Assembly: GCA_023267375.1 (NCBI GenBank)
Contig: JAHFNJ010000001.1
Location: forward strand, 21,878-85,877
DNA: 64,000 nt
DNA from: Candidatus Nomurabacteria bacterium
GTDB lineage: Bacteria; Patescibacteriota; Minisyncoccia; Phycocordibacterales; UBA9973
Direction: 5' to 3'
The notes beneath the pieces were generated by a model, which ran no database searches, was not told the origin of the DNA, and worked only from the letters and a program-made list of their open reading frames with translations. A program made the position numbers and the translations under genes. Below are positions 6,250 through 63,936 of this stretch, piece after piece. Position 1 is the stretch's first letter, and each line of letters opens with the position of its first letter.

Positions 6250-7278
6250 TTACGCTACACTATAGAGTCCGTTTTTATTCTTCTTGAAATATTTTGGATT
6301 CTGCAGATTGACGAGGATTGTATTTTTCTTAAGAAAACGTTCTTTGGAAACCTTATCGACAACATCATCTTTCGAGAGCGGTCCTTCTTTTTTCAAAATT
6401 TCCTTGATGACATCGCGGACAATTCCTTTTTTATATCCCCATTCAGAGAGTCCGTAAGTACCGCGACCAACCAACACGAAACGCCCATCTTTAATAAGTT
6501 CATTGTGACAGGTAGCCGTGTGACATTTCTTGTTGAACGTATCACCGATAGCTTTTGCAACTTCACGGAAGTGCATTGGTGAACCATGTTTTCGCATCAT
6601 AAGGAATGCGTAATCTTTGATACCGCGAGTCTTCACATTTGAAGATTCTGCCTTACCCCATTCACCGAGTGGATTGCGATTTATATTTTTTGAAATGTTC
6701 AACCAGCGACGAGCGATTTCTTCATTGCGGTATTTATCAGAAACGTTCTTGATGTTCTCAAGAAATCGACTGATCAAATCAGATTCGGAAATGAGTTCAT
6801 CATCAGAAAGAGAACTGTAGAGTTTGCGAAGTGACTCATGCACTTCTTTTGAAATTTCATCATCAACACTCCAGCGTGCACGGAACTCTTCATCTTCTTT
6901 TTCTTTCTTAAATTCGTCACCCAAGACGAGATAGAGGTGGATGTGGTTCTGCGTAGCTTTATCAGAAGAGAGATGTTCAAGGAAATCATCCTCAGAGACA
7001 ACGGCACCAAGCTCATGCATAGCAGTTTTGAGTTCTTCAAACGCCTGAGTTGCTTCCTTAAATGTTTCAGACTTTTTAACAGCAGCGAGCGCAGCGTTTT
7101 CAATCTGACGAACACGCTCACGAGTAATACCATATTTTTGACCGATAGCTTCAAGCGTCTTTCGTTCTGCATCTTCACCTAAACCGAAACGATTAAAGAC
7201 CACATCGTACGCGCGGTTCTGAAGTGGTGAGAGAATCTTTTTAGTAACTTGCTTAGGTTTGAAGGAAATTTTTGCCAT
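6250..7278 (-). CDS. DNA-binding protein: sigma-70 region-4-like HTH plus a C-terminal HARE-HTH domain
   Basis: N-terminal LEAIGQKYGITRERVRQIENAALAAVKK is a sigma-70 region 4 HTH. C-terminal ...MHFREVAKAIGD..GRFVLVGRGTYGLSEW is HARE-HTH-like, as in the RpoE delta N-terminal domain. Confidence 0.6.
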   Translation of the reverse strand: MAKISFKPKQVTKKILSPLQNRAYDVVFNRFGLGEDAERKTLEAIGQKYGITRERVRQIENAALAAVKKSETFKEATQAFEELKTAMHELGAVVSEDDFLEHLSSDKATQNHIHLYLVLGDEFKKEKEDEEFRARWSVDDEISKEVHESLRKLYSSLSDDELISESDLISRFLENIKNVSDKYRNEEIARRWLNISKNINRNPLGEWGKAESSNVKTRGIKDYAFLMMRKHGSPMHFREVAKAIGDTFNKKCHTATCHNELIKDGRFVLVGRGTYGLSEWGYKKGIVRDVIKEILKKEGPLSKDDVVDKVSKERFLKKNTILVNLQNPKYFKKNKNGLYSVA

Positions 7279-11963: not shown

Positions 11964-11992
11964 TTTTAGGTTCTAGTTGCTAGGTTCTAGTT
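11964..11992. repeat. left inverted repeat of the four-helix-bundle cassette
   Basis: ttaggttctagttgctaggttctag. It matches the reverse complement of 12336..12369 over about 19 of 20 bp, plus extensions. Confidence 0.6.
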
Positions 11993-12335
11993 TATTAATA
12001 ATAGTTCGTAACATTTTACTTACTTCTTCAAGTAACGGCAATGACTCATCGACAGAAATACTATACAAATCCCTGCAAAGAAGTAGTTGGGTCTCAAGTT
12101 CTGCAGCAGATCCATACGCTAAATGCAGAAACTGGCAATAATCCTTTCTTGTTTTTCTATTACTACCTTCAGCAATATTGGATACGATTGAGACTGCAGA
12201 TCGGCGCACCTGAGATTGAAGTGCATATACTTCGGAATTTGGAAGTTTAATACTTATCTTGTAAACAATTTTTACCAACTCATATCCTTTCTGCCAAACA
12301 ATTAGATCTTTGTATGATTTTATTTTTGTATCCAT
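11973..12335 (-). CDS. four-helix-bundle protein (TIGR02436 family, the kind found in 23S rRNA intervening sequences)
   Basis: SQVRRSAVSIVSNIAEGSNRKTRKDYCQFLHLAYGSAAELETQL is the family signature. The ORF is bracketed by CTAG-rich inverted repeats. Confidence 0.8.
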   Translation of the reverse strand: MDTKIKSYKDLIVWQKGYELVKIVYKISIKLPNSEVYALQSQVRRSAVSIVSNIAEGSNRKTRKDYCQFLHLAYGSAAELETQLLLCRDLYSISVDESLPLLEEVSKMLRTIINKLEPSN

Positions 12336-15335: not shown

Positions 15336-16640
15336 ATGGCAAGTTTAAAGATACAAGGCGGGAAAAAACTAAGCGGCGAAATCATTCCGCAAGGAACAAA
15401 AAACGAAGCGCTCGAAGTCTTGTGCGCAACATTACTCACTGATGAAGAAATCCGGATCGAAAATGTTCCGGATATTTTGGATATACAAAACCTTCTCACG
15501 GTGCTTGAAAAATTGGGAGTAACTATTACAAAAGAAGATGCGCACACCTATACGTTTCGCGCACAGAATATTAACGTTGACTATTTAAATGGTAATGGCG
15601 ACATCGCCGAAGCAGCAACGATCCGTGGCTCACTCATGGTTGCGGGACCGCTTCTTGGCCGTTTTGGAAAAGCATACATGCCGAAGCCGGGCGGAGACAA
15701 AATTGGTCGCCGCAGACTCGATGCTCATATTTTCGGATTTGAAAAATTAGGAGCGACCGTAGCACGCTCAGAAAAAACAAATGCATACCTCATCTCGGCC
15801 CACAAACTCACTGGTGCAGATATTCTTTTTGATTATGCCTCTGTCACTGGAACAGCAAATACTATTATGGCAGCAGTACTCGCAGAAGGTACAACCACAC
15901 TCTACAACGCAGCGTGCGAACCCCACGTCCAACAATTATGCAGAATGCTAAACTCTATGGGCGCGCAGATCTCTGGTATTGGTTCAAACATGCTTGCAAT
16001 TACTGGTGTAGAAAAATTAAAAGGCTGCACGCACCGCATATTGCCCGACATGATTGAAATTGGTAGCTTCATCGGACTTGCCGCAATGACCGGCTCTGCG
16101 CTTACCATAAAAGATGCGGATTACGGACACCTGGGAAACATTCTTCCAACATTTCGCAAACTTGGTATTCAGATACAACAGGAAGGAAAAGATATCATCA
16201 TTCCAACACAAGAACACTACGCTATAGAAAAATTCTTAGATGGATCAATCTACACACTCATGGATGCAGTGTGGCCAGCCTTCCCTGCAGACTTGCTCTC
16301 AGTAGTACTCGTCGTTGCAACACAGGCAAAAGGAAGTATGCTAATCCATCAATCAATGTTTGAGAGCAGACTTTTCTTTGTTGATAAATTGATCGACATG
16401 GGTGCACAGATTATTTTATGTGATCCGCATCGTGCAGTTGTTGTCGGACTCGATCATGAAAGTTCTCTTCGCGGCATTACCATGTCATCTCCAGATATTC
16501 GCGCCGGCGTTGCACTCTTGATCGCCGCACTTTCCGCAAATGGAGAAAGCACTATTCACAATAGCGAACAAATCGATCGCGGCTATGAACGTATCGCTGA
16601 ACGACTTTCACTACTCGGAGCAAAAATTGAACGTTTTTAA
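15336..16640 (+). CDS. murA: UDP-N-acetylglucosamine 1-carboxyvinyltransferase
   Basis: 434 aa. LKIQGGKKLSGEI..KNEALEVLCA and full-length MurA similarity. Confidence 0.9.
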   Translation: MASLKIQGGKKLSGEIIPQGTKNEALEVLCATLLTDEEIRIENVPDILDIQNLLTVLEKLGVTITKEDAHTYTFRAQNINVDYLNGNGDIAEAATIRGSLMVAGPLLGRFGKAYMPKPGGDKIGRRRLDAHIFGFEKLGATVARSEKTNAYLISAHKLTGADILFDYASVTGTANTIMAAVLAEGTTTLYNAACEPHVQQLCRMLNSMGAQISGIGSNMLAITGVEKLKGCTHRILPDMIEIGSFIGLAAMTGSALTIKDADYGHLGNILPTFRKLGIQIQQEGKDIIIPTQEHYAIEKFLDGSIYTLMDAVWPAFPADLLSVVLVVATQAKGSMLIHQSMFESRLFFVDKLIDMGAQIILCDPHRAVVVGLDHESSLRGITMSSPDIRAGVALLIAALSANGESTIHNSEQIDRGYERIAERLSLLGAKIERF

Positions 16641-16709: not shown

Positions 16710-17120
16710 TCAATTATTTTTTTGTAATACATCCAGCTCTTTCTTAAAAAAGAGGATGTGGCGGCGATTTTCTTCGATTGTCATTAGCATTCCTGCAAAG
16801 AAACGTGAGATAACAATCACAAGAATAAAACCGATTGGAAAAAGAAACGATTCGACAACAGCCAAATCATTTGCTCTTCCAATAAAATAACTGAGGAAAA
16901 TGATAAGAGTAACTCCTGCACCAACAGGGGTAAGCACTTCAAACAATTTCTTGAAGCCAGTTCTTAATTGAGAAACCAGCGAATCAAGAATCACCACGAT
17001 TGGTGAGGGGCCAGCGGTAACTGCTTGGGAGTAATTCCATAATAATTGAGCGACTACAATATTCGCCCGCTTTTTTAATCTTTTCATTTTACTTTTTTGG
17101 GGTTTTTGGGGGTTGAACAC
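16710..17120 (-). CDS. hypothetical membrane protein
   Basis: 136 aa with three or four TM helices and a basic N-terminus. Confidence 0.4.
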   Translation of the reverse strand: MFNPQKPQKSKMKRLKKRANIVVAQLLWNYSQAVTAGPSPIVVILDSLVSQLRTGFKKLFEVLTPVGAGVTLIIFLSYFIGRANDLAVVESFLFPIGFILVIVISRFFAGMLMTIEENRRHILFFKKELDVLQKNN

Positions 17121-17268: not shown

Positions 17269-19203
17269 ATGAAAGCAGTGACTGTTGTCCCTATCGCAAA
17301 AGGGATAGGCAAAGAGCATTTAACCTATTTTTCGGCCAAAGATATTACTGTTGGCACGATTGTTTCTGTACCGATTCGCAATAAAATTATTGATGCACTC
17401 GTCGTTGAAACCAGCGACGTTGAAAATACAAAATCTGAAATTAAAGAAGCATCCTATCAGCTTAAGAAAATAGAAAAAGTAAAAGGAACTTCCCTCTTTT
17501 CTGATGCATTTCTTCACACTGTTGATCTAGCTCGCCGCTACTACCTGACACAAACTGGTGCCATGATTGAAGCAGTTGTGCCAAAAGTACTCATGACTCA
17601 TGCACAGTCGCTCAATCATCCGGCAAAAGAAAAAGAGAGTGACAAGCCCACCATCAAACAAGAAAAAGTGGCATTCCAAGCGCCACTCGAAGATCGACTA
17701 GTCTACTACAAAACATTCATCCGCGAATCATTCGCTCGCAAGCAGTCAGTGTTTATTACACTACCGACGATTCACGAAATCGAAACGTTCGCGGAAACAC
17801 TCGCAAAAGGAATCGAGACGTACACATTTGTGCTTCATAGCGACCTGCCTGCTAAAGAAATTGTCTTGCTCTACAATCAAATCCTCGACGAACCGCATCC
17901 GGTGCTCATTATTGCAACACCATCATATGTGGTCATCCCTCGGCAAGACATTGGCACCTATATCGTTGAACGCGAAAACTCAAGTGCCTATCGCCTGATC
18001 GAACGCCCACAAATTGATATGCGTCTCTTTGTGGAATTTTATGCCCGTGAACGAAACAAAAAATATATTCTCGCAGACACCTTTCTCCGCGTTGAAACAC
18101 TCTTTCGTATTGATGTGCATGAATTGGGAGAAGTCGCCTCTTCTGTTTTTCGATTACCACAAGGCGTAGAAATAGATATCGTTGATACGAAGCGTTCCGA
18201 CGCACCAGTTGTTGTACGAAAGAAATTCCAAATCATCAGCGACGAAGCACTGGCGACCATCCGCTCGGCAATAGCTGCAAAAAAACATGTCTTTCTTTTC
18301 ACCCTTAAAAAAGGCTTAGGGTCAATTACACTCTGCAACGACTGTGGTGAAGCACTCTTGTGCGATATGTGCGCTTCGCCAATGCGGCTCGTGCAAAATG
18401 CTACCGGGGATCGCATGTATCGCTGTAACCGCTGCAAGCGCACAAAGGACGCCACGACTCCATGCTCGCTCTGCGGCAGCTGGAATTTGATCGCGCTTGG
18501 TATCGGCACCGACCGCGTCTATGAAGAATTGCATTCTCATTTTCCAGACGTTCCGCTATTTCGTGTCGATAAAGACATCACAAAAACGGATGCTGCTGCG
18601 CGAAAAGTAATGCGCGAATTTTATAAAACAAAAGGCGCAATTCTCTTGGGTACCGAAATGACTTTTTTCCATCTTGATAATAAAGTGGACTACAGTGTCA
18701 TCGTTTCATTTGATTCTCTCTTCTCATTGCCATCATTTCGCATCCACGAAAAAATTCTCCAACTCTACCTTACCCTTCATTCATACACAGAGAAAAAAAT
18801 AATAATCCAAACAAAAAATCCACGTGAAGAAATAATCATGGCTATCAAACATTCAAATGCGCTCAATTGGTACCGGAGTGAACTCAAAATGCGCGAAGCG
18901 GCACACTATCCACCATTTACGATGCTCATGAAAATTAGTTACCGCGGTATAAAAGACGAAGTCGAGAAAGCGAAGGCAGAATTTTTGCTTGCCCTCCACG
19001 ACTACCATCCAGTTGTTTTTCAATCGACCGAGGCAAAAATAAAAGGCGTCTATGTCGTCAACGCGGTACTCAAAATAGCTCGCGAACGCTGGATACTATC
19101 ATTCTTAAACGACAGCAACACCTATGACAAGAAGCTAGAGCGTATTTTACGCTCCCTGGACCCCGAAGCCTCTATTCAGATTGATCCGGAGGACCTTTTA
19201 TAA
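17269..19203 (+). CDS. priA: primosomal protein N' (PriA)-like, with degenerate helicase motifs
   Basis: PriA-like N-terminal 3'-DNA-binding region and Cys-rich zinc region (CNDCGEALLCDMC...YRCNRCKRT...CSLCGS). Where Walker A should be, the sequence is FQAPLEDR. DEEH is ERENSSAY. Confidence 0.7.
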   Translation: MKAVTVVPIAKGIGKEHLTYFSAKDITVGTIVSVPIRNKIIDALVVETSDVENTKSEIKEASYQLKKIEKVKGTSLFSDAFLHTVDLARRYYLTQTGAMIEAVVPKVLMTHAQSLNHPAKEKESDKPTIKQEKVAFQAPLEDRLVYYKTFIRESFARKQSVFITLPTIHEIETFAETLAKGIETYTFVLHSDLPAKEIVLLYNQILDEPHPVLIIATPSYVVIPRQDIGTYIVERENSSAYRLIERPQIDMRLFVEFYARERNKKYILADTFLRVETLFRIDVHELGEVASSVFRLPQGVEIDIVDTKRSDAPVVVRKKFQIISDEALATIRSAIAAKKHVFLFTLKKGLGSITLCNDCGEALLCDMCASPMRLVQNATGDRMYRCNRCKRTKDATTPCSLCGSWNLIALGIGTDRVYEELHSHFPDVPLFRVDKDITKTDAAARKVMREFYKTKGAILLGTEMTFFHLDNKVDYSVIVSFDSLFSLPSFRIHEKILQLYLTLHSYTEKKIIIQTKNPREEIIMAIKHSNALNWYRSELKMREAAHYPPFTMLMKISYRGIKDEVEKAKAEFLLALHDYHPVVFQSTEAKIKGVYVVNAVLKIARERWILSFLNDSNTYDKKLERILRSLDPEASIQIDPEDLL

Positions 19204-19288: not shown

Positions 19289-20029
19289 TTACTTGAAACA
19301 CGCAACCATCGCATTCTCAATTTTAAAAGATCTGCCACAGAAACGAATGTCGTCTGATAAGTACATTTTCGGAAAATACTTTATCTGCCTATCCCAATGG
19401 TTTTCATAATCACATCCCATAAATCGAACATATGCATCTCCGTTCTCTGTTCCTCCATATTTTTTACCGTAAATAGTATTGAGAAACAAAGTAGGATACT
19501 CTTTCCATGATTCAGGGATTAAGTAACGAAAATCAAAAAGATAATCAGCAATACATCCGTTGCACAAGCTGAAATGCTTGCTGAAATATTCATGCATCAG
19601 CCAACCATTAATGATCCCTTTTTTACTTGCGAAATGATCTCTGTATTTAATAAGAGGAACAAGAGATATTTTTTTAGGATTCCAAGGAAAATCTGGCTGA
19701 GGAGTATGTTTCTTCAGATAATACCCATCCTGGGGATGGAAGAGATCTGGTTGAACATCTCCACAAATCATGTGGCTTTCATTTGGCATCCCTCCATTGT
19801 TAACAAATAGGATGAATTCTTTTACAAGTCGTTCATCATTTTTAATGAGTACTTGACTTCCCTCTTTGTTTAAGAGTTCTTCCATTTCTGGATACTTACT
19901 CAATAGGCAAGTGATCATTTTATGAAATTGACCAAGACTTGCTTTTTCATTTACTGGTTTCATTTTATTCTTTTTTATGGGTTTACGACACCCGACTACG
20001 GAATAGTACTTAGCAACATGGCTGTTCAA
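19289..20029 (-). CDS. hypothetical Cys-rich protein (orphan, flanked by inverted repeats)
   Basis: 246-aa ORF with nine Cys, several Trp/Tyr-rich stretches and no motif I recognise. It has its own terminator. Confidence 0.5.
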   Translation of the reverse strand: MNSHVAKYYSVVGCRKPIKKNKMKPVNEKASLGQFHKMITCLLSKYPEMEELLNKEGSQVLIKNDERLVKEFILFVNNGGMPNESHMICGDVQPDLFHPQDGYYLKKHTPQPDFPWNPKKISLVPLIKYRDHFASKKGIINGWLMHEYFSKHFSLCNGCIADYLFDFRYLIPESWKEYPTLFLNTIYGKKYGGTENGDAYVRFMGCDYENHWDRQIKYFPKMYLSDDIRFCGRSFKIENAMVACFK

Positions 20030-49486: not shown

Positions 49487-52345
49487 TTATGCAGCGACAA
49501 TGTTCACCAATTTATTTTTTACGTAAATTATTTTTCGAATCGTCTTGCCTGCTATCCATGATTGTATCATAGGATGATTCTTTGCTATTTCTTCTGCTTC
49601 TTTTTCTGATAGTGAAACAGGGACTGTTGCTTCGGCGCGAACTTTGCTATTTACCTGTATGACGAGCGTAAAGGTATCATCAACAATTTTCTTCGGATCA
49701 TACTTTGGCCACTTTGAAAGATGGATAGATTTCTTCTCTCCCATCTCTCGCCAAAGCTCTTCAGCAACGTGCGGGATAAATGGCGCGACTATCTGCAAAA
49801 ATAGCTTGAAATCTTTTACCGAAAGGCTTTCTGCCTTCTCCATTTCATTTACACAAATCATCATCGATGAAATCGCAGTATTGAAACCCATGATTTCAAT
49901 ATCTTCAGTCACCTTTTTAATTGCCTTATGGAGTAATCGTTCTATCTCTTTACTGCTTGTCTTCGCTTTTGCACTCATTACCTTTTCTCCTAGTCGCCAG
50001 ACTTTTTCAATAAAGCGTCGTGAACCGATCATGCTCTCCGTTGACCACACCACTGCTTGATCAAATGGACCAAGAAACATCTCATAGAGACGAAGTGTAT
50101 CAGCGCCGTAGGTTTTGACGATATCGTCAGGATTTACTACATTACCCCGAGATTTTGACATCTTCTCTCCTCCTTCAGCCAAAATAAGTCCATGCGATGT
50201 ACGCTTCTTGTATGGCTCACTCGTCGGCACTAATTTCAAATCATAGAGGAATTTGTGCCAGAAACGAGAATAGAGCAGGTGAAGTGTGGTGTGTTCCATT
50301 CCCCCGTTATACCAATCAACTGGCGTCCAATATTTCAAATTTTTCTTTGACGCAAACTCTTTTTTATTTTTCGGATCGGTGTAGCGAAGATAGTACCAAG
50401 AACTTCCTGCCCAGTTTGGCATCGTATCAGTTTCGCGTTTTGCTTTACCTTTGCATTTTGGACACTTCGTATTTACCCATGAAGTAATAGCGGAAAGTGG
50501 CGATTCCCCAGTATCAGTCGGCTGGTAACTTTTTACTTTTGGCAATTTGAGTGGCAATTCTTTCTCTGGTACTGGCACCCAGCCACACTTTTCACAATTG
50601 ACGAGCGGAATCGGTTCACCCCAATAACGCTGCCGAGAGAACACCCAATCACGAAGTTTGAATTTCGTCACCATTTTTCCGCCGACAAATTCAGTTATAT
50701 TCTTTTTTACTTCTTGAGAAGAAAGACCATTGAACTGGCCGGAGTTAATCAAAACACCACCTTCAGTGTAGGCACCTATTTTCCCAAGATACTTATTCCA
50801 AGAAAGTTTATGATTGCCATGCACCAAAAAATCTTCCATCTTATTTTTTTCTATCCAAAGCGGCTCATGTTTTTTTAACTCCTCTTCATCAACGTTATTC
50901 TGCGCGCCACTTCCAAGTTCGATCACTATCGTTTGTGCTTTCGCATAACGGTTTTCGCCTTTTTGGTGTTGATAAAATTTTGAATGTACTTCAAACTGTA
51001 AATCATATGCTTTCTTAAAATCAGTAAACCCTGTTTCTTCTGAAACCTCACGCTTCATAGCACTTACTGCATCTTCCCCTGTATCAATACCTCCCATAAC
51101 AAGCGACGTCCAATGATCTACTTGTTTCCATTTAAGTGCCAAATATTTATCCTCACTCCAATGTTTAATGATTGCATAGGCAACATCACGCTCAATTACA
51201 GGTTTACCCGCAACAGGCTTATCAGGATGACCTTCTCCAGATTCAAACATCGGTGCAATAACCTGCTTAATCGGCAATTTGTATTTTGTCGCAAACGCAA
51301 AATCACGCTCATCATGTGCGGGTACCGCCATAACCGCGCCCGTACCGTAATTTACCAATGCATAATCAGCCACCCAGACTGAAACCTTTTCACCATTTGC
51401 TGGGTTGATTGCTTCTACACCTTTCAATTCCACGCCAGTCTTTTCTTTGTCGGCCGCTGTTCGGGTCAATTCATCTTTCTTTTTTGCTAGAGCTATATAT
51501 TTCTCAACCTCGTCCCAATTTTTAACTTTCGACTTTAGACTTTCGACTAATGTATGTTCAGGCGCAAGTATCACGTAGGTTGCACCAAAAATAGTATCTG
51601 CACGTGTTGTAAATACTTTGATTCCCAATTCTGAATCTGTAATTTTAAATTCAATTTCACTGCCTTCTGATTTTCCAATCCAATTTCGCTGTTGTGTTTT
51701 GACTTGCGGCAGATAATCTACCGTATCCAAATCTTTATCGAGACGGTCAGCATATTTTGTGATCGCAAGCATCCATTGTTCTTTCTCACGCTTTTCAGTC
51801 AGCGTACCGCAGCGCTCGCAGCAACCATTGATCACTTCTTCGTTCGCTAAACCAATTTTATCTTTTGGACACCAGTTAATGACGGTCTTGGTTTTGTACG
51901 CCAAACCTTTTTTAAAAAATTGCAGAAATATCCACTGCGTCCATTTATAGTACGCAGGGTCAGTGGTATTTACTTCACGAGACCAATCAAACGAAACTGC
52001 CAATGATTTTATCTGTCGACGAAAGTTATCACTGTTTTTCTTGGTGACTTTCTCCGGCGCAATACCTGTCTTGATCGCATAGTTTTCGGTGGGCAGTCCG
52101 AACGCATCCCAACCAATCGGATAAAGCACATTATAGCCTTCCATGCGACGCTTACGAGAAATAATATCCATACCTATATATGGACGCGGGTGACCGACGT
52201 GAAGGCCATCACCTGATGGATATGGGAACTCAATTAAACCGTAGAATTTTTTACCCTTAAGCTTATTTTGAGCGTTATAAATTTTCTTCTTTTCCCATTC
52301 CTTCTGCCATTTGCCCTCGATTTTCTTGTGATCGTAATTCTTCAT
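49487..52345 (-). CDS. leuS: leucyl-tRNA synthetase carrying an inserted Nudix hydrolase domain
   Basis: FPYPSGDGLHVGH (HIGH), CP1 editing domain (TRADTIFGATYVILAPEH...AVPAHDERDFAFA), KMSKS. Between CP1 and the YTEGGVLINSGQFNGL segment there is an extra ~160 aa containing GGIDTGEDAVSAMKREVSEETGF, a canonical Nudix box. Confidence 0.9.
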   Translation of the reverse strand: MKNYDHKKIEGKWQKEWEKKKIYNAQNKLKGKKFYGLIEFPYPSGDGLHVGHPRPYIGMDIISRKRRMEGYNVLYPIGWDAFGLPTENYAIKTGIAPEKVTKKNSDNFRRQIKSLAVSFDWSREVNTTDPAYYKWTQWIFLQFFKKGLAYKTKTVINWCPKDKIGLANEEVINGCCERCGTLTEKREKEQWMLAITKYADRLDKDLDTVDYLPQVKTQQRNWIGKSEGSEIEFKITDSELGIKVFTTRADTIFGATYVILAPEHTLVESLKSKVKNWDEVEKYIALAKKKDELTRTAADKEKTGVELKGVEAINPANGEKVSVWVADYALVNYGTGAVMAVPAHDERDFAFATKYKLPIKQVIAPMFESGEGHPDKPVAGKPVIERDVAYAIIKHWSEDKYLALKWKQVDHWTSLVMGGIDTGEDAVSAMKREVSEETGFTDFKKAYDLQFEVHSKFYQHQKGENRYAKAQTIVIELGSGAQNNVDEEELKKHEPLWIEKNKMEDFLVHGNHKLSWNKYLGKIGAYTEGGVLINSGQFNGLSSQEVKKNITEFVGGKMVTKFKLRDWVFSRQRYWGEPIPLVNCEKCGWVPVPEKELPLKLPKVKSYQPTDTGESPLSAITSWVNTKCPKCKGKAKRETDTMPNWAGSSWYYLRYTDPKNKKEFASKKNLKYWTPVDWYNGGMEHTTLHLLYSRFWHKFLYDLKLVPTSEPYKKRTSHGLILAEGGEKMSKSRGNVVNPDDIVKTYGADTLRLYEMFLGPFDQAVVWSTESMIGSRRFIEKVWRLGEKVMSAKAKTSSKEIERLLHKAIKKVTEDIEIMGFNTAISSMMICVNEMEKAESLSVKDFKLFLQIVAPFIPHVAEELWREMGEKKSIHLSKWPKYDPKKIVDDTFTLVIQVNSKVRAEATVPVSLSEKEAEEIAKNHPMIQSWIAGKTIRKIIYVKNKLVNIVAA

Positions 52346-56165: not shown

Positions 56166-59100
56166 TTACAACCCCAATGCTTGCAGTATCGCTGCCCAGG
56201 TTACTGGACCAACAACACCATCAACCGGAGCAAGACCTTTTGCAGCTTGGAATGCTTTCACCGCTGCTTCGGTCTGTAATCCGAAGTATGCATTTTCATT
56301 ACCAGGAGAACCGCCACCAGTTGTTGAAACGATGAATCCCAATTTGTTGAGTGATTGCTGAAGGAACATTACATCAGGACCGGTTGATTTGTATTTCAAT
56401 ACTCCAGTGTATGGATGACCGTTTGATGATGCTCCTGCATTACTGTTCCCTGATGGAGGAGTAACGCCAGCACACGACTGACCGGTTGATGGAGAGAAGA
56501 GGAAGCCTGCAGCACAGTCTGTTGGAGGGGTTGCTGGGGTTGCAGGAGGAGTTACTTTTGGACGTGATGATCCTCCACCGCCTCCACCACTAATGCTGGT
56601 GCCAGACGATGACTTATTAAATGTTGCAGTGCAGGTCTTGTCATCATCCATTGTAATTGTAATCGTCGCATTTGTACTTGAAGAACAGCCAGACCAATTC
56701 TTGAACGTAGATTTTGCTGCCGCTACTGCATAGAGTGTTACTTCTGTACCATCATCATAATCAGGTCCTTCTGGGTCAACATGGATAGTGCCTGTGCCAT
56801 TTCCTGAAGTATTGGTAGTTAAAGTAAATTGTTCAGGACCAGTCGAAACAAATGTTGCATGAATAGAATGGTTACCAGTAACATCTGTAAATTCATACGT
56901 TGTAACTGCGCCAACAGAAACATCATCTACAGTTACATCATCAATTGCGTATCCTTCGCTTGGAGCTACTGTAAAGGATTGGTCATCTCCTTCTGCAACG
57001 GACACCACTCCACTTGGAGTGACTGTTCCATTACCACCAGTTGTAGCGGTAATGTGATGCGTTTGAACGAGTGTAGGATAATCACCAACATTTGTTTTCC
57101 ATATGGTGTCAAAATTCCAGCTACCATTATCAAATGGATGATTAGCGGTGACGTCGCCGAAGAAATAGTTTGCACCAAGGGCAACAGGCGCGTTCACTCC
57201 TTCACATTCACCTGCAGTATCGTTTGCAACAGGAGGATCGATCCAGTCAGTAAATATCGAACAATGATCCTGTCCACTTCGATCTATATCGTAATAGTTA
57301 TTTGAGAGAGTTGCGCCATCATCATTTTCACCGAGAAAGCCGGCAGTAAAGATTCCAAATCCGGAAACTTCTTCAACTGCACCAGCAGAGAAACTGTTTG
57401 AGATAGTACCGCCTTCAGTTTCACCCACAAGTCCGCCGACTTCAGATTCAGTTTCTTGAACATCTGTTTCTAAATCTTCATCCCACATAAGCAACCCTGT
57501 AAGATCTCCCGTTACATCACCAGAAGCATATGAGTGGTCAATAATTGTTTCGTCAGCAAACCCTACGAGGCCACCAACCGAACGTGTTCCTGAAACATCA
57601 CCACTCGCATAAGAGTTATCGATTGTAAGAACACCTTCTGAATCTCCAATAAGACCTCCGGTATCCTGACCTCCAGTAACATCACCAGTCGCATATGAAG
57701 TGGTAATAGTTGTATCATCATCTGCTCCACCTATAAGTCCACCGAATCCATAGTAATCATTATCAATTTGAGATGTTATATTACCAGTTGCATGAGAATC
57801 AGTAATATTCACAGTTACTAAATCACTCGTCCACCCAACTAAGCCACCCAAATACTCATAGATACTTGAAACATCATTTGTTGCATAGCTTTGATCAATG
57901 TTTACTGTTGTTGGATTTTCACCCCACCACCAACCTGACTCTACTGAACCGAGTAGTCCACCAGCGTATCCTTCATCAATACTACCAAGTTCATCTGACG
58001 CGCCAATATCTCCCACAGCATTTGAGTTGGTAATGTTTATAACTTGGTGACCTCCACTATTTATCGAATAACCTATAAGCCCACCGATAGAGGAACTTCC
58101 AATTTCAATCGGAACGTCACTATAACTATCAGTTACGGTGAGCGTATTTGTTTCACCTGTATCGCCACCTGTATAAAATTCTCCTATCAATCCTCCAATG
58201 TATTCACCATCTTCTGTTGTACTTGAGATGGTTCCTGTAGCGCTACTTCCATCAATCACTGCTGTTGCTTGATCATTAAGTTCAATTTCACCAATAAGAC
58301 CTCCAGCGTAACCTTCTGGTGCGGTAACCACGTTCCCACTTTCATTAGTCCATGAACTATCAGTTATAGTAAGCTCATCTCCATTTTCAACATTAGCATA
58401 ACCAATTAGTCCGCCAACTTCCTCATTACCTGTAACATCTTCAGTTGAAGTACTATTTTCTATAGTAATGTCAGCATCGTATATTTCACCTAAAAATCCA
58501 CCTATACCATAAGATTCACTTGTATTTGTAATAACATTTGCAGAATTTGTACTATCAGTAATCGTTATTGCTCCACTATTATTATCATCCCCATCATACT
58601 CTCCGATAAATCCACCCACTCCCTCTCCATTACCTGTTGTAACTGCTCCCTGATTTGTTGCATCATCAAAATTAATAGTAAAAGGTATATCCTCTGAGTA
58701 TGCATGTCCGATGAAGCCACCTATATAATAATTCCAAGTAGTACCCTCATTATCTGTGGCAGTTACACTTGCATTATTGTAACTCTCTCCTTCTATACTT
58801 ATAGAACTATTACGAGAATCTACTTGCCCAATAAATCCTCCAAGACTGTATATATCGTTACCACTTGAAGTACTACCAATACTTCCATCAACATAACTAT
58901 TATCTACAGTAATCACGCTGTTATAACGGATTATAGAATAACCTATAAGTCCACCGATATACCCACTATTTGTAGCAGAAATATTTACGTTAGCATCTGA
59001 ATCTGAAATAGTTACATTACTTCCAAAGCGCTGCTCCAATCTTCCAAACATTCCACCTAAATTATTCTGACCATCATCTACTGAAAGCTGTCCTTCGGTG

Positions 59101-60566
59101 CCATAATTTACGGAAGTATTTGAAACCGTGAGTGTTGCTCCGTGGTATGCATCTCCATATCCAACAAGACCACCGACATCATAATTACCGTGCACAGCTC
59201 CATCAACTCCACCAACAATAGTATCTGAAATAGTTAAAGAAGAATCGTAATACATCTCGTATCCTCCTATAAGACCACCGACATCACTATCCCCAGTTAA
59301 ATGAAGATTACTTGTACTGTTTGTTATTGAAAGCAAACTATCACGTGCATCCCAGTATCCAACAAATCCTCCTATATCACTCCACGCACTATCAATTGTT
59401 CCATCGGCACTTGTATCATCTATGTAAACACTACCTGCGGAAGATTCCCAATAATCATCATTGTTAACATAACCAATAATTCCACCAACATCATATATAT
59501 TATCTCCATTGCCAATATCTACAGTGGCATGAGAACCGCCATTAATAACAAGTGAACCACCACGATACTGTTCTACTTCTCCAACAAGTCCACCAATATC
59601 ATATCCTGGAATTATTCCACCTTCATCTATAAGTACATTAGTATCTACGTTTGTAAGCGTGAGAACAGAACCACCAGATTCAATATCTGCATAACCGACA
59701 GCTCCACCCAATTCTCCTTGACCATTTATAGTTGCCTCTCCATCCCCCCAAGAAGTGTCACTAAGAGTAGCTTTTGCCGAGGAATCAAGATATACATAAC
59801 CAATAAGTCCCCCAACATCATTACTACCTGACGCAACATCACCAGTTACCACTACATCATCAACAGTAAGACTCGCATTATTGGACATATTTACATATCC
59901 AATAAGTCCACCTGTTGCCCAACCATCATTCGTGACATTCACCGATACAGATCCTCCTGTTATTGAAACAGCACTACTTGCAGCATCCCCATATACTTCT
60001 CCGACAAGTCCACCGATATAGTAGTTTACTCCATGAACAGTTCCGCTTGCTGACACATTTTCAACCGTTGAATCATATTGAAGGTACCCAGCAAGTGCTC
60101 CGATATTATAAGCTCCACTCATATTAACGTCTGTAAGTGTAAAATCATGAATATATGCACCATTATTTGTATCACTGAAAAGTCCTACACCATCCTCACC
60201 TGGACGATTTATATATAAGCCAGTAATTGTATTACTGTTTCCGTCCAAGGTTCCAGAGAAATTTTCAAGTGGAGAAAAACCATAAAATCCACCTTCTCCA
60301 TTATCATTCCAGGTGGTTGTACCCGAACAATTAATAACTCCTTCGCCACCATTTAATTGATAGTAAACTCCTGGAGCTACATTGTTACCAATTGCTTGCA
60401 ATTCTTCACACGTAGTAATGAGATAAGGATTATCGGCAGTACCATCGGGATCAGCAAACGATGTTTTTGGGTAGACAGCAACCAAGGTAACTAGCACTAT
60501 CGCAAAAATTCCCGTTGGAACAAATGAAAACTTCCTGAATTTTTTAAAAAAGTTTGTGGTAATCAT
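56166..60566 (-). CDS. giant cell-surface protein: signal anchor, ~35 GLUG-type repeats, InlB-B-like repeat, Cys motif, and a C-terminal peptidoglycan-binding domain
   Basis: 1466 aa. Reiterated ..(I/V)GG(L/F)(I/V)G(Y/E).. units of ~25 to 30 aa (GLUG motif). C-terminus ...PSEGYAIDDVTVDDVSVG..YEFTDVTGNHSIHATF, G6SS linker, DCAAGFLFSPSTGQSC, then LxxGxxGxxVxxLQ...DGVVGPVT (PG_binding_1-like). Confidence 0.7.
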   Translation of the reverse strand: MITTNFFKKFRKFSFVPTGIFAIVLVTLVAVYPKTSFADPDGTADNPYLITTCEELQAIGNNVAPGVYYQLNGGEGVINCSGTTTWNDNGEGGFYGFSPLENFSGTLDGNSNTITGLYINRPGEDGVGLFSDTNNGAYIHDFTLTDVNMSGAYNIGALAGYLQYDSTVENVSASGTVHGVNYYIGGLVGEVYGDAASSAVSITGGSVSVNVTNDGWATGGLIGYVNMSNNASLTVDDVVVTGDVASGSNDVGGLIGYVYLDSSAKATLSDTSWGDGEATINGQGELGGAVGYADIESGGSVLTLTNVDTNVLIDEGGIIPGYDIGGLVGEVEQYRGGSLVINGGSHATVDIGNGDNIYDVGGIIGYVNNDDYWESSAGSVYIDDTSADGTIDSAWSDIGGFVGYWDARDSLLSITNSTSNLHLTGDSDVGGLIGGYEMYYDSSLTISDTIVGGVDGAVHGNYDVGGLVGYGDAYHGATLTVSNTSVNYGTEGQLSVDDGQNNLGGMFGRLEQRFGSNVTISDSDANVNISATNSGYIGGLIGYSIIRYNSVITVDNSYVDGSIGSTSSGNDIYSLGGFIGQVDSRNSSISIEGESYNNASVTATDNEGTTWNYYIGGFIGHAYSEDIPFTINFDDATNQGAVTTGNGEGVGGFIGEYDGDDNNSGAITITDSTNSANVITNTSESYGIGGFLGEIYDADITIENSTSTEDVTGNEEVGGLIGYANVENGDELTITDSSWTNESGNVVTAPEGYAGGLIGEIELNDQATAVIDGSSATGTISSTTEDGEYIGGLIGEFYTGGDTGETNTLTVTDSYSDVPIEIGSSSIGGLIGYSINSGGHQVINITNSNAVGDIGASDELGSIDEGYAGGLLGSVESGWWWGENPTTVNIDQSYATNDVSSIYEYLGGLVGWTSDLVTVNITDSHATGNITSQIDNDYYGFGGLIGGADDDTTITTSYATGDVTGGQDTGGLIGDSEGVLTIDNSYASGDVSGTRSVGGLVGFADETIIDHSYASGDVTGDLTGLLMWDEDLETDVQETESEVGGLVGETEGGTISNSFSAGAVEEVSGFGIFTAGFLGENDDGATLSNNYYDIDRSGQDHCSIFTDWIDPPVANDTAGECEGVNAPVALGANYFFGDVTANHPFDNGSWNFDTIWKTNVGDYPTLVQTHHITATTGGNGTVTPSGVVSVAEGDDQSFTVAPSEGYAIDDVTVDDVSVGAVTTYEFTDVTGNHSIHATFVSTGPEQFTLTTNTSGNGTGTIHVDPEGPDYDDGTEVTLYAVAAAKSTFKNWSGCSSSTNATITITMDDDKTCTATFNKSSSGTSISGGGGGGSSRPKVTPPATPATPPTDCAAGFLFSPSTGQSCAGVTPPSGNSNAGASSNGHPYTGVLKYKSTGPDVMFLQQSLNKLGFIVSTTGGGSPGNENAYFGLQTEAAVKAFQAAKGLAPVDGVVGPVTWAAILQALGL

Positions 60567-61215: not shown

Positions 61216-63936
61216 CTATTTCATTCTACTTGCCGTTACTGGACCAACGACACCATCAGCAGGAAGTCCGTTCATTCGTTGAAAGAGTTGCACCGCTTGC
61301 ATTGTTTTAGTACCAAACGAATTTGTTTCAAATCCTTTTGAGCCAGTACCAGAGAGAGAAACGGGGTATCCATGCGTATTCAAATATTTTTGCAACAGGA
61401 GTACGTCGTTCCCGATCATGCCAAATTTGAGTGTGCGAACATAGACATAGGGTGCACCACCACTCGTTTGATTTCCTAAAAACAGTGACTGCAGTGGCGC
61501 GCTACCGCCTGTGCATGATTGCCCAGTTGACGGACTAAAGGCAAAACCAAGTGAACAATCAGCGGGCTTGGCGAGAGCCGGACATGCCCTTCCAGTCGAA
61601 GGACTAAAAGCAAAACCAAGTGAACAATCAGCGGGAACTACCGGTTTTGGAGCACCGCCTCCCCCTCCACCACCACCACTAGAAGTATTTTTTTTAAACG
61701 TTACGCTGATTGTATGGTCTTCGTTCACTCCCGAAAATGTATATTTTTTTACTGACCCAACTGATGAACCATCAACAAGCACTTTATTTACTGAGTATCC
61801 CCGTGCCGGAGTGATTGTAAAGAGTTGACTGCCACCAAATGAAACAGTAACGGCTCCTGTTGGAGTGATTGTTCCATTTGCGTCTGCTGAAGCAGTAATA
61901 TGCGGGGAAACAATGCCGCTACTAAAAGTAGCGACAGCGGCATTGAGAGTCACCAGTGCCGCGTCAACAGTTGCTTGCGCGACAGCATTGGTTATTGATG
62001 AGGCGGTATCAATTGCAGTTTGGAGTGTCGCTTTCGAACCAACAGCATATTGTCCGGTTGCCGTACCTTCTACAGCTCCGTCGTATAATGTTTGCGCAGA
62101 AGAAATTGCAGCAGTGAGCGCAGTTAAATCGGATGGTGGCACTACTGAAGCATAAAATGTTGTTTCAGCGCTAACTAATGCAGCCAGTGCAGAATTTATT
62201 GTTGATTGAGATGAGCTTATTGTGTTCGCCACTGCTTGAGCAGCATCTATCGCAGATTGAAATAGTGCCTTCGAACCCACCACATGATCTCCTGGGGTTG
62301 TGCCTTCGATTGCATCATCGTGGAGTCCTTGTGCGGTCACAATCTCAACATTTAAAGCATCGAAATCAGCCGGAACAATACCTGACAGAAACACTCCAGT
62401 TGCAGCATCGAGCGCACTGACTCCATCGGCAATGAAACTCGAGGAGGAATCACTGTCATCTAAAATTGCAGTTGCGGCGTCAATTGCCGTTTGGTAAGTA
62501 GCTTTTGAGCCGACACTGTACTGTCCTGGACTTGTTCCCTCAACGGCGCTGTCATGGACACCTTGGGCGTAGAGAATATCAGCATCAAACAAGGCTTTCT
62601 GAGCATTTATTCTTTTTTCAGAAACAGTCTTGCCGGAATATCCCGCCTTAGTATCTCCAGTATTTAAAATGATGCTTCTTACTTGTGTCGCAGTGAGATT
62701 ATTTTTATATCCCCAAATAAGCCCTGCTAAACCTGCGACGTACGGAGTCGCCATTGAAGTACCTGAAAGGTATGCGTACGCATTTTGCGTAATCGTACTT
62801 GCGATATTTTCTCCCGGAGCGGCGACATCCACAGAGGTAGCCCCATAATTTGAGAATGAGGTAAGCGCATCATTTTGATCAGTGGCCGCAACTGAAATAA
62901 TACTTGGCAAATCATAATCTGAAGGATAAAAATGAGAAGTATCGTTATTGTTAGTATCATTCCCTGCCGCAGCCACAAAAATTCCTCCGGCGTTTTGGAA
63001 GCGCTCAATTGCATCATATTCGGCTTGAGAAAATCCTCCACCCCCAAAGGAAGCATTGATAACTTTTGCGCCATTTTGAATCGCAAAATCAATTGCCTTC
63101 ACTTCGGACGATACTGTGAGCGCAAAACGAAGTGCCATTATTTTTGCATGCGGCGCAATACCCAAGACTCCGATGCCGTTATTTTTTTCTGCAGCAATAA
63201 TTCCAGCAACGTGAGTACCATGATAATCCGAGTTGGTCCCTGGTAATGGCGTTTTGTCATTACCACTATAATCATACCCATAGTTACATCCACCAAGTAC
63301 CGCACCAGTATTACTCTTGCAGTTGGTGCCATCCCACATATTCGTAGCCAAATCAGGGTGTGTATATGAGACACCGATATCAATCACCGCAACAACAACA
63401 GCTGCATTTGTTCCTTCATTTATTGCCCATGCTTCTGGAGCATCAACATCTGCGTCGGCGGTTCCAGTGATATTCGCCCAATCACCATTTATCGTCTGAC
63501 CAGTGTTATCGAGTCCCCAAAGTAATGCTCGATGGGTATCATCCGAACTAATCGTTGTAATATCTCGCACGTAGTTTGGTTCAGCATATTCGATATTTGG
63601 ATCATTTTGCAAATCAGCAATAGTCTCCTCTACTGTTTTTACTGAATCCGTTTTGAGTAGTGAAATATTTTCTTTTTGAAAATGCTCTTCAATAGAAAGT
63701 GCTTGCTTTTTACTGAGCGCATCAGCAAGAGCTCTCCCTGAGGCAGTCTTTAAATTCACTTTCTCTTCTTTGTATTTCACCAGAACTTCATCCGGAACAT
63801 AGTGATGCACCTCTTGGCTTTTCATTTGCGGGACTGGAATAATAACGTCGTCCGCAGAAGCAAGTGGTGCCACAACAAGCATACTAAACAGAAGTATGCT
63901 TGTTACAAACAGAGTTTTGCTTTTTATGGTAAGCAT
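61216..63936 (-). CDS. secreted S8 subtilisin-like serine protease with FIVAR-like repeats and a C-terminal peptidoglycan-binding domain
   Basis: Signal peptide. D (VIDIGV), H (HGTHVAGIIAA), S (GTSMATPYVAGLAGL) catalytic triad. Four ~55-aa repeats (..EGT.PGQY.VGSKAT.QTAIDAA..). InlB-B-like repeat, G8 linker, 2x DCSLGFAFSPSTG(R/Q)xC, and a PG-binding domain. Confidence 0.8.
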   Translation of the reverse strand: MLTIKSKTLFVTSILLFSMLVVAPLASADDVIIPVPQMKSQEVHHYVPDEVLVKYKEEKVNLKTASGRALADALSKKQALSIEEHFQKENISLLKTDSVKTVEETIADLQNDPNIEYAEPNYVRDITTISSDDTHRALLWGLDNTGQTINGDWANITGTADADVDAPEAWAINEGTNAAVVVAVIDIGVSYTHPDLATNMWDGTNCKSNTGAVLGGCNYGYDYSGNDKTPLPGTNSDYHGTHVAGIIAAEKNNGIGVLGIAPHAKIMALRFALTVSSEVKAIDFAIQNGAKVINASFGGGGFSQAEYDAIERFQNAGGIFVAAAGNDTNNNDTSHFYPSDYDLPSIISVAATDQNDALTSFSNYGATSVDVAAPGENIASTITQNAYAYLSGTSMATPYVAGLAGLIWGYKNNLTATQVRSIILNTGDTKAGYSGKTVSEKRINAQKALFDADILYAQGVHDSAVEGTSPGQYSVGSKATYQTAIDAATAILDDSDSSSSFIADGVSALDAATGVFLSGIVPADFDALNVEIVTAQGLHDDAIEGTTPGDHVVGSKALFQSAIDAAQAVANTISSSQSTINSALAALVSAETTFYASVVPPSDLTALTAAISSAQTLYDGAVEGTATGQYAVGSKATLQTAIDTASSITNAVAQATVDAALVTLNAAVATFSSGIVSPHITASADANGTITPTGAVTVSFGGSQLFTITPARGYSVNKVLVDGSSVGSVKKYTFSGVNEDHTISVTFKKNTSSGGGGGGGGAPKPVVPADCSLGFAFSPSTGRACPALAKPADCSLGFAFSPSTGQSCTGGSAPLQSLFLGNQTSGGAPYVYVRTLKFGMIGNDVLLLQKYLNTHGYPVSLSGTGSKGFETNSFGTKTMQAVQLFQRMNGLPADGVVGPVTASRMK
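61521..61634 (-). repeat. ~57-bp tandem duplication inside the S8 protease CDS, encoding the duplicated DCSLGFAFSPSTGxxC motif
   Basis: actaaaggcaaaaccaagtgaacaatcagcggg and actaaaagcaaaaccaagtgaacaatcagcggg are nearly identical cores, 57 bp apart. Confidence 0.6.

Follow-up and report, generated by a model that had tools for sequence, protein, structure and literature searches.

Can a PriA whose helicase motifs have been replaced still take part in the restart of replication? The question is raised by a priA-like gene in a 64,000-nucleotide stretch of DNA from a Candidatus Nomurabacteria bacterium (contig JAHFNJ010000001.1), called the window below. The original prediction for this gene, made by reading the sequence, was of an ATPase-dead homolog that might still recognise forks. 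Our findings agree with it in outline: the motifs for nucleotide binding and hydrolysis are all replaced in the encoded protein (hereafter the query), and the equivalents of Tyr18, Lys61, the eight zinc-binding cysteines and Asp438 of Escherichia coli PriA are kept, as would be expected of a fork-binding protein with a predicted inactive motor. We consider it likely that the query is the PriA orthologue of this Parcubacteria/Paceibacteria (Patescibacteria) bacterium and that it is a pseudohelicase, a motor-less scaffold for fork recognition and replisome reloading.

A PriA fold without a winged helix

That the protein is a PriA homolog was borne out over its full length. NCBIfam priA models cover most of its 644 residues (best E = 5.2e-61). 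The PRK05580 models match it at E = 5e-61, whereas the PRK14873 'primosome assembly protein PriA' models, which we take to be actinobacterial, score it much lower (E = 1.8e-21). Some actinobacterial PriAs are flagged in UniProt as having no detectable helicase domains. With the TIGR00595 equivalog model the query reaches 192.9 bits, under the trusted cutoff of 230.35. The only solved structures with significant sequence similarity to the query are those of Klebsiella and E. coli PriA (E = 2.7e-27 to 1.2e-25, over residues 163–555), and a phmmer comparison with Klebsiella PriA likewise gives E = 2.7e-27. Canonical PriAs are matched by the Pfam models DEAD, ResIII, Helicase_C, Zn_ribbon_PriA and PriA_C; in the query, Pfam detects a single domain, PriA_3primeBD (PF17764; residues 18–105, E = 8.4e-9, 35.6 bits against a cutoff of 22.7).

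An AlphaFold2 model computed from a 118-sequence family alignment (mean predicted local distance difference test score, pLDDT, 87.4; predicted template modelling score, pTM, 0.84) has the PriA arrangement of two RecA-like lobes together with a C-terminal domain (CTD). When this model was compared with the PDB using Foldseek, the top nine matches were PriA every time, with template modelling (TM) scores of 0.72–0.74. They include the E. coli fork complex (8fak_H; E = 2.7e-38, TM 0.74), an engineered PriA with its winged helix (WH) deleted (6dcr; E = 1.9e-33, TM 0.73/0.74) and Klebsiella PriA (4nl4; E = 1.0e-31, TM 0.72). Because all nine are PriA and the next fold, Mfd, is far weaker (E ~5e-8), the model indicates that the query is a complete PriA, with a 3′ DNA-binding domain (3′BD), two RecA-like lobes, a cysteine-rich region (CRR) and a CTD, minus the winged helix. 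We considered whether the gene might be an assembly artefact or a pseudogene and rejected both explanations. Independent assemblies from NCBI, ENA and Logan all contain the identical protein, which is therefore no assembly artefact; the conservation and substitution-rate data given below tell against a pseudogene.

The winged-helix domain of E. coli PriA spans residues 109–181 (PMC5778457), and residues ~107–210 of that protein have no counterpart in the query in a MAFFT alignment. The spacing from 3′BD to lobe 1 is 27 residues in the query and 20–34 in the family panel, compared with 106–197 in nine canonical PriAs; in a second family neighbourhood, consisting of 119 proteins reached from the divergent member P0250, the linker is 27–58 residues long. 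This linker is the least conserved part of the protein and has the lowest pLDDT. The N-terminal DNA-binding region that had been claimed for the protein is consequently present in its 3′BD half, identified by PF17764, and absent in its winged-helix half.

Replacement of the motor motifs

Motifs were placed by a HMMER pairwise alignment to Klebsiella PriA and by a MAFFT alignment with E. coli K-12 PriA and 119 homologs. The HMMER alignment begins past the Walker A position, and Walker A was therefore placed using MAFFT. The superfamily 2 (SF2) helicase motifs I (GxTGSGKT), II (DEEH), III (SAT) and VI (QxxGRxGR) are all missing from the query, and at motif Ia the sequence PEIGLT is reduced to LP----T. 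For Walker A, the replacement that had been described stands, although its register does not: FQAPLEDR (residues 136–143, nucleotides 17,674–17,697) had been named, and GVTGSGKT aligns one residue further on, with QAPLEDRL. The conclusion is unaffected by the shift. The reading of the DEEH box as ERENSSAY (residues 234–241, nucleotides 17,968–17,991) proved correct. The HMMER alignment to Klebsiella PriA, a check of the kind that had been proposed, sets IVERENSSAY of the query opposite VIDEEHDSSY and so confirms that EREN occupies the DEEH position. The prediction had also seen no obvious arginine-finger-like residues, and motif VI is indeed replaced, five residues shorter and without an arginine in the query. 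A remnant of motif IV, LFTLKKGL (residues 343–350), is kept; its [RK][RK]GL core is 93–99% conserved in the family, and canonical PriAs have NRRG there.

An intact Walker A or DExH motif elsewhere in the protein would mean that the motifs had been misplaced; neither the query nor any of 382 relatives contains one. The pattern GxxGxGK[ST] occurs nowhere in the 382 family proteins (0/382), and the two looser [AG]xxxxGK[ST] matches among them sit at unrelated positions.

As a positive control, nine canonical PriAs were placed in one joint alignment with the query and 20 diverse relatives. In addition to E. coli PriA, these came from Listeria, Staphylococcus, Monoglobus, Parabacteroides, Fusobacterium, Acaryochloris, Neisseria and Sinorhizobium, so that Bacillota, Bacteroidota, Cyanobacteriota, Fusobacteriota and Pseudomonadota are all represented; these eight genes were retrieved from a plasmid collection that contains chromids and mislabelled chromosomes. 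The controls are ~21–28% identical to the query, which puts them at the same distance as E. coli PriA. All nine keep motifs I–VI and Ia, reading G[VI]T[GS]SGKT, PEIxLT, DEEH, SAT, xR[RK]G (mostly NRRG), GTQ and QVxGRAGR, whereas motifs I, Ia, II, III and VI are lost in the query and in all 20 relatives. Misalignment was examined as a cause of the apparent loss and rejected, as the HMMER pairwise alignment, MAFFT alignments of three family samples and the nine-species canonical control agree.

A clade-wide state

A protein-database search returned 391 relatives of the query. The best 120 are all ~640–660 residues long and 41–75% identical to it, and the names they carry, where given, are Paceibacterota, Minisyncoccia, Nomurabacteria, Wolfebacteria and Patescibacteria. 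When one genome per GTDB species was scanned, at least 572 genomes proved to encode a relative; data at the level of the locus come from 80 loci kept out of these matching species genomes. The titles of the kept loci read Patescibacteria, Paceibacteria, Nomurabacteria, Taylorbacteria, Minisyncoccia or, generically, 'uncultured Candidatus Saccharibacteria', and nine of the 80 bear the title 'bacterium' or 'uncultured bacterium' alone. NCBI taxonomy places Nomurabacteria within the Parcubacteria group of Patescibacteria. In an exhaustive library of representatives, 1,247 cluster representatives matched with E ≤ 1e-30.

We counted motif residues in three sets of 120, 140 and 119 proteins, the last being the neighbourhood of P0250, and cite the counts in that order with E. 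coli numbering. The Walker A lysine, K230, is replaced by Arg in every protein (120/120, 140/140 and 119/119). The residue before it, G229, is D or E in 119/120, 132/140 and 119/119, G224 is Q in 119/120, and T231 has become hydrophobic. At motif II, D320 is replaced by E (or remains D), E321 by H, R, K or N, and H323 by S or N; E322 is invariantly E. Motif III has D for S356 in 120/120, 127/140 and 115/119, and motif V has E for Q540, giving GTE, in 120/120, 127/140 and 117/119. Many divergent members keep a single R or K near the first motif VI arginine (the R584 position), a placement that depends on the alignment; the subfamily of the query has none. The motif-less state is clade-wide and selected, extending over at least 572 Patescibacteria species genomes, and is no peculiarity of one genome.

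In the divergent members P0250 and P0153, motif II is still DEEH or EEEH with Walker A fully lost, which suggests a stepwise erosion: Walker A probably went first, and motif II decayed afterwards. We searched outward from P0250 for an intermediate that bears Walker A and found none in the 119 further proteins, all of which are without it.

The same residues bear on whether the protein could be a cryptic NTPase, binding and perhaps hydrolysing nucleotide through residues other than the canonical ones (Arg in place of Lys, Glu in place of Asp, E-x-E) and working as a slow switch rather than as a motor. The pseudo-P-loop is as long as a P-loop, and its residue at the Lys position is invariantly basic; the position of the Walker B Asp keeps a carboxylate, E or D; and the DEEH or EEEH of P0250 and P0153, together with the single R/K that many members keep near motif VI, also speak for such an activity. 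However, the P-loop has lost its three glycines as well as the Thr/Ser, two acidic residues lie ahead of the Arg, the Glu at the second position of DEEH is exchanged for H, R, K or N, SAT has become D-x-x, and both motif VI arginines are missing from the query. The change from Lys to Arg is sufficient to kill the ATPase of E. coli PriA (PMC5778457) and accompanies the inactivity of Deinococcus radiodurans PriA (PMC4504706). In addition, the Pfam models DEAD, ResIII and Helicase_C miss the lobes of the query and detect those of the controls. We therefore regard residual NTPase activity as very improbable and favour a pseudohelicase.

Selection on the replaced residues

Loss of the motifs might instead reflect relaxed selection on a decaying gene, ahead of its disappearance from a reduced genome. 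Reduced genomes do shed repair functions, this protein has lost its winged-helix domain, and some further drift of the motifs is seen between subfamilies. The pattern of conservation is difficult to reconcile with decay. Open reading frames (ORFs) are intact in all 80 kept loci and full-length in 76 of them, and 377 of the 382 collected relatives are full-length, intact proteins. In the family alignment, 38 positions are invariant, and lobe 1, the catalytically degenerate one, is the best conserved of all the domains, with 40 of its 168 positions conserved at 90% or more. In comparisons with the two closest relatives, which are 75% and 72% identical to the query, dN is 0.15–0.20 and far below dS, and omega is ~0.02–0.07, values that are qualitative only, since dS is saturated. 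The AlphaFold2 model is confident, and the substituted motif residues are themselves fixed. Because the replacement residues are conserved and the degenerate lobe 1 is the most conserved domain, we judge the gene to be under purifying selection. Decay is extremely improbable and is effectively refuted by the conservation data.

Conserved sites for DNA, zinc and partner binding

In E. coli PriA, the pocket for the 3′ end of DNA is formed by Asp17, Tyr18, Gly37 and Lys61 (PMC5778457). Tyr18 is matched by Tyr (Y20 of the query) in 119 of 120 family proteins, and Lys61 by K or R (K66 of the query) in all 120. The four-Cys-pair zinc module, as predicted, is also present: CxxC pairs are found at C356, C365, C386 and C399, in alignment with the E. 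coli zinc ligands C436–C479, and each of the eight cysteines is invariant across the 120 homologs (120/120). The CRR further carries the equivalents of Asp438, Thr482 and His483, residues of the PriB docking site that have been mutated in E. coli PriA (PMC10175261). Asp438 is kept as D (D358 of the query) in 119/120, Thr482 is replaced by W (W405) in 117/120 and His483 by N (N406) in 116/120. This docking surface is constrained but unlike that of E. coli, a combination that would fit the binding of a different partner. In the CTD, 17 of 99 positions are conserved at 90% or more, and some relatives have precomputed Pfam matches to PriA_C (PF18074) there. The layout of the gene and protein is given in Table 1.

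Table 1. Layout of the priA-like gene and its product in the window (all on the + strand)
Feature	Residues	Nucleotides	Strand	Remarks and basis
priA-like gene	1–644	17269..19203	+	644 codons plus stop; ATG start; ORF list
3′ DNA-binding domain (3′BD)	1–110	17269..17598	+	PF17764 above cutoff
Short linker in place of the winged-helix domain and the segment upstream of motif I	111–132	17599..17664	+	22 residues
RecA-like lobe 1	133–300	17665..18168	+	catalytically degenerate; pLDDT 94–97
Pseudo-motif I, QAPLEDRL for Walker A GVTGSGKT (E. coli 224–231)	137–144	17677..17700	+	gapless in MAFFT
Pseudo-motif II, EREN for DEEH (Walker B)		17968..17979	+	HMMER and MAFFT
Pseudo-motif III, DTF for SAT		18076..18084	+	MAFFT
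RecA-like lobe 2, including the CRR insert	325–545	18241..18903	+	secondary structure, pLDDT
Cysteine-rich region (CRR)	353–410	18325..18498	+	four CxxC pairs, two zinc sites
Pseudo-motif V, GTEM for GTQM		18649..18660	+	MAFFT
Pseudo-motif VI region, LYLTLHSY for QVAGRAGR		18763..18786	+	followed by a 5-residue deletion; no arginine
C-terminal domain (CTD)	546–644	18904..19200	+	full-length structural match to PriA

Genomic context

The window is an ordinary chromosomal housekeeping region, with genes for an RseP-like protease and RRF, holB, mreB, murA, priA, ybeY, ftsA, ftsZ, trxB, mur ligases, aminoacyl-tRNA synthetases and tRNAs. In the 80 loci, the divergent placement of holB-mreB relative to priA is conserved, with mreB at position -1 in 56 and holB present in 55; no conserved co-oriented neighbour of priA was found in these loci. 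In six of the 80, priA is followed immediately, on its own strand, by a gene resembling that for deformylase (def), identified by eye (for example, L069 9,942–10,505 and L075 10,108–10,653). A priA-def/fmt arrangement is present in Listeria and Monoglobus, and the def-like neighbour looks like a vestige of a priA-def-fmt arrangement. A search for a second priA, which had been advised, found none in the window or within ±8 kb of the gene in the 80 related loci. Conserved synteny and the lack of a second priA-like ORF at the loci examined therefore support orthology.

This context also speaks to the idea, raised in the original prediction, of a repurposed DNA-binding scaffold: a PriA-derived paralogue at work outside restart, in recombination, chromosome organisation or the coupling of cell division, with a canonical PriA or another restart factor encoded elsewhere. 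The neighbourhood of envelope and division genes (mreB, murA, ftsA and ftsZ) and the score below the TIGR00595 cutoff are what one might expect of such a protein. Yet the gene is single-copy at every locus examined; as in PriA that is competent for restart, the pocket Tyr and Lys, the CRR and the docking Asp have been kept; and the gene is linked to the replication gene holB and, in the six loci, to the def-like vestige of a canonical neighbourhood. The genomes of the group are small, the longest contigs among the relatives being 0.6–0.84 Mb, and we know of no PriA paralogues as a feature of bacteria. A repurposed paralogue is in our judgement improbable, and we retain the assignment as the PriA orthologue.

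Some further features of the window were noted. The murA gene (15,336–16,640) is inserted between mreB and priA, compared with the usual order holB-mreB/priA. The two ORFs that flank priA, 16,710–17,120 (136 residues) and 19,289–20,029 (246 residues), both on the minus strand, have no Pfam match and no homolog beside priA in the 80 loci. The remaining observations concern genes that are likewise on the minus strand. A leucyl-tRNA synthetase of 952 residues (49,487–52,345) has a NUDIX-domain match at residues 408–503 (E = 5e-7) after its editing domain, which is unusual for this enzyme. Between the RRF and M50 protease genes, with no rRNA nearby, an ORF of 120 residues (11,973–12,335) encodes a '23S rRNA-intervening sequence protein'/bAvd-like four-helix-bundle protein (E = 7.7e-34). 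A 342-residue protein (6,250–7,278) combines Sigma70 region 4 with a HARE-HTH domain and could be a DNA-binding regulator; its 340-residue counterpart on the contig of the closest relative (L082 2,122–3,144) has a precomputed match to the DnaA C-terminal domain (Bac_DnaA_C). A GLUG-repeat protein of 1,466 residues (56,166–60,566) and an S8 subtilase of 906 residues (61,216–63,936) both end in the peptidoglycan-binding domain PG_binding_1. The GC skew over 58–60 kb is -0.36, strongly negative compared with the rest of the window.

A proposed motor-less restart factor

How might a PriA without a motor act? When E. coli PriA recognises a fork, its shape changes: the CRR comes to surround the single-stranded lagging-strand DNA, and the partner-docking surface is exposed. 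A duplex lagging arm blocks this change until it has been unwound (PMC10175261, PMC13594977). We propose that the Parcubacteria protein would bind an abandoned fork or D-loop via its 3′BD, lobes, CRR and CTD without ATP. Recruitment of DnaB, likewise without ATP, would follow; the contact could be direct, as has been reported for the D. radiodurans protein, or made by way of a lineage-specific partner bound on the CRR. As a duplex lagging arm could not be unwound by such a protein, its action would be restricted to forks whose lagging-strand single-stranded DNA is already exposed, or is exposed by another enzyme. Reloading of DnaB at abandoned forks is a predicted role, for which the conserved functional sites and the linkage to holB give indirect support.

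The old ATP cleft may have been put to a structural use. Its conserved charges ([DE]-R in pseudo-motif I, E-[HRK]-E in pseudo-motif II, D in pseudo-motif III and E in pseudo-motif V) probably make up a network of salt bridges, which would keep the lobes together in place of a nucleotide. A bolder extension, which we put forward tentatively and think rather unlikely to hold as a whole, is that the entire Parcubacteria/Paceibacteria radiation restarts replication with a PriA that never needed to be a motor. The cleft would be a salt-bridge latch that mimics the nucleotide-bound state and keeps the protein a constitutively 'armed' fork sensor, the CRR surface D358-W405-N406 would dock a lineage-specific partner or, directly, DnaB, and the whole would amount to a minimal, PriA-only pathway with an origin independent of that in Deinococcus-Thermus.

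Several points weigh against the picture of a motor-less fork-recognition scaffold and should temper it. The loss of ATPase and unwinding in the query is a prediction that rests on sequence, and the omega values, as said above, are qualitative. Two of the four residues of the 3′-end pocket differ, Asp17 being replaced by T or S and Gly37 deleted in the family, and recognition of the 3′ end may therefore be altered. The presence of dnaB and a loader had been suggested as a check. A Pfam search of ~58 ORFs in the window found no dnaB, dciA, dnaC/dnaI, ssb, priB or other helicase gene, and the related loci likewise hold neither dnaB nor a loader. With none of the partners DnaB, DciA or SSB seen in the window or the related loci, the helicase-recruitment step is an extrapolation. 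A second, canonical priA may be present elsewhere in the genome, the single-copy evidence covering the window and the 80 loci to ±8 kb. Finally, the salt-bridge network is a proposal drawn from the conserved charges.

Our search of the literature, including follow-ups to the Deinococcus paper discussed below, found no prior report of a motor-less PriA in Patescibacteria, the Candidate Phyla Radiation or Parcubacteria. Hundreds of species of these ultra-small and probably symbiotic bacteria carry a PriA from which the motor has been erased, with the fork-recognition and zinc modules under strong selection, and what was a curiosity of a single phylum is thereby broadened to a trait of a major bacterial radiation. 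These findings support the idea that the essential, ancestral job of PriA is structure-specific fork recognition and helicase recruitment, to which unwinding is accessory. The family also offers a natural minimal PriA, with neither motor nor winged helix, for structural and biochemical study of how DnaB is handed over to forks without PriB, DnaT or DnaC. There is a practical consequence for annotation as well. JGI and UniRef call the relatives 'primosomal protein N′', as do some NCBI records; many other NCBI records have 'hypothetical protein'. Since many family members, the query among them, score under the NCBI threshold for PriA and many bear the second label, automated surveys may miss PriA in these genomes and could wrongly score them as lacking replication restart.

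Comparison with known systems

Compared with canonical PriA (4nl4, 6dgd and 8fak; TIGR00595), the query has the same fold (TM 0.72–0.74), with the 3′BD, the two lobes, the eight-Cys CRR in lobe 2 and the CTD. It differs in having lost Walker A, DExH, SAT, QxxGRxGR and the winged helix, in scoring under the TIGR00595 cutoff and in going unseen by the Pfam models DEAD, ResIII and Helicase_C. With regard to the missing winged helix, the engineered deletion variant 6dcr is among its closest structural matches.

The E. coli allele priA300 encodes PriA K230R, in which ATPase, helicase and translocase activities are abolished, and primosome assembly and PriA-PriB restart are kept both in vivo and in vitro; it is defective in the PriA-PriC pathway (PMC5778457). 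The Parcubacteria family resembles this mutant in having Arg, invariantly, at the same position. Unlike K230R and K230A/D, which are engineered point mutants of an otherwise canonical, PriB/DnaT-dependent protein, the family is natural and multiply substituted; no PriB, PriC or DnaT was seen in its lineage, though no genome-wide search for them was made.

The nearest natural parallel is D. radiodurans PriA, which has a Lys-to-Arg change in GKT and a degenerate Walker B, shows no measurable ATPase or unwinding, and binds single-stranded DNA, forks and DnaB (Lopper, Boone & Morrow 2015, PMC4504706). In the review literature, Deinococcus-Thermus is the sole exception to the conserved helicase activity of PriA (PMC5778457). 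The comparison made here follows the published description; the 73 plasmid and chromid records held no Deinococcus-Thermus or actinobacterial PriA. The inactivity of the D. radiodurans protein has been proven biochemically, whereas the Parcubacteria family is known here from its sequences. The two have in common a degenerate Walker A with the same Lys-to-Arg change and a degenerate Walker B (DEEH to E-[HRKN]-E-[SN]). They differ in phylum and in the extent of replacement, motifs Ia, III and VI being replaced here in addition to the motifs I and II described in the paper. The Parcubacteria family also has no winged-helix domain and belongs to a far larger clade, with at least 572 species genomes. 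The PriA pseudohelicase is a kind of protein already known from Deinococcus-Thermus, and the Parcubacteria family is its second, much larger natural case.

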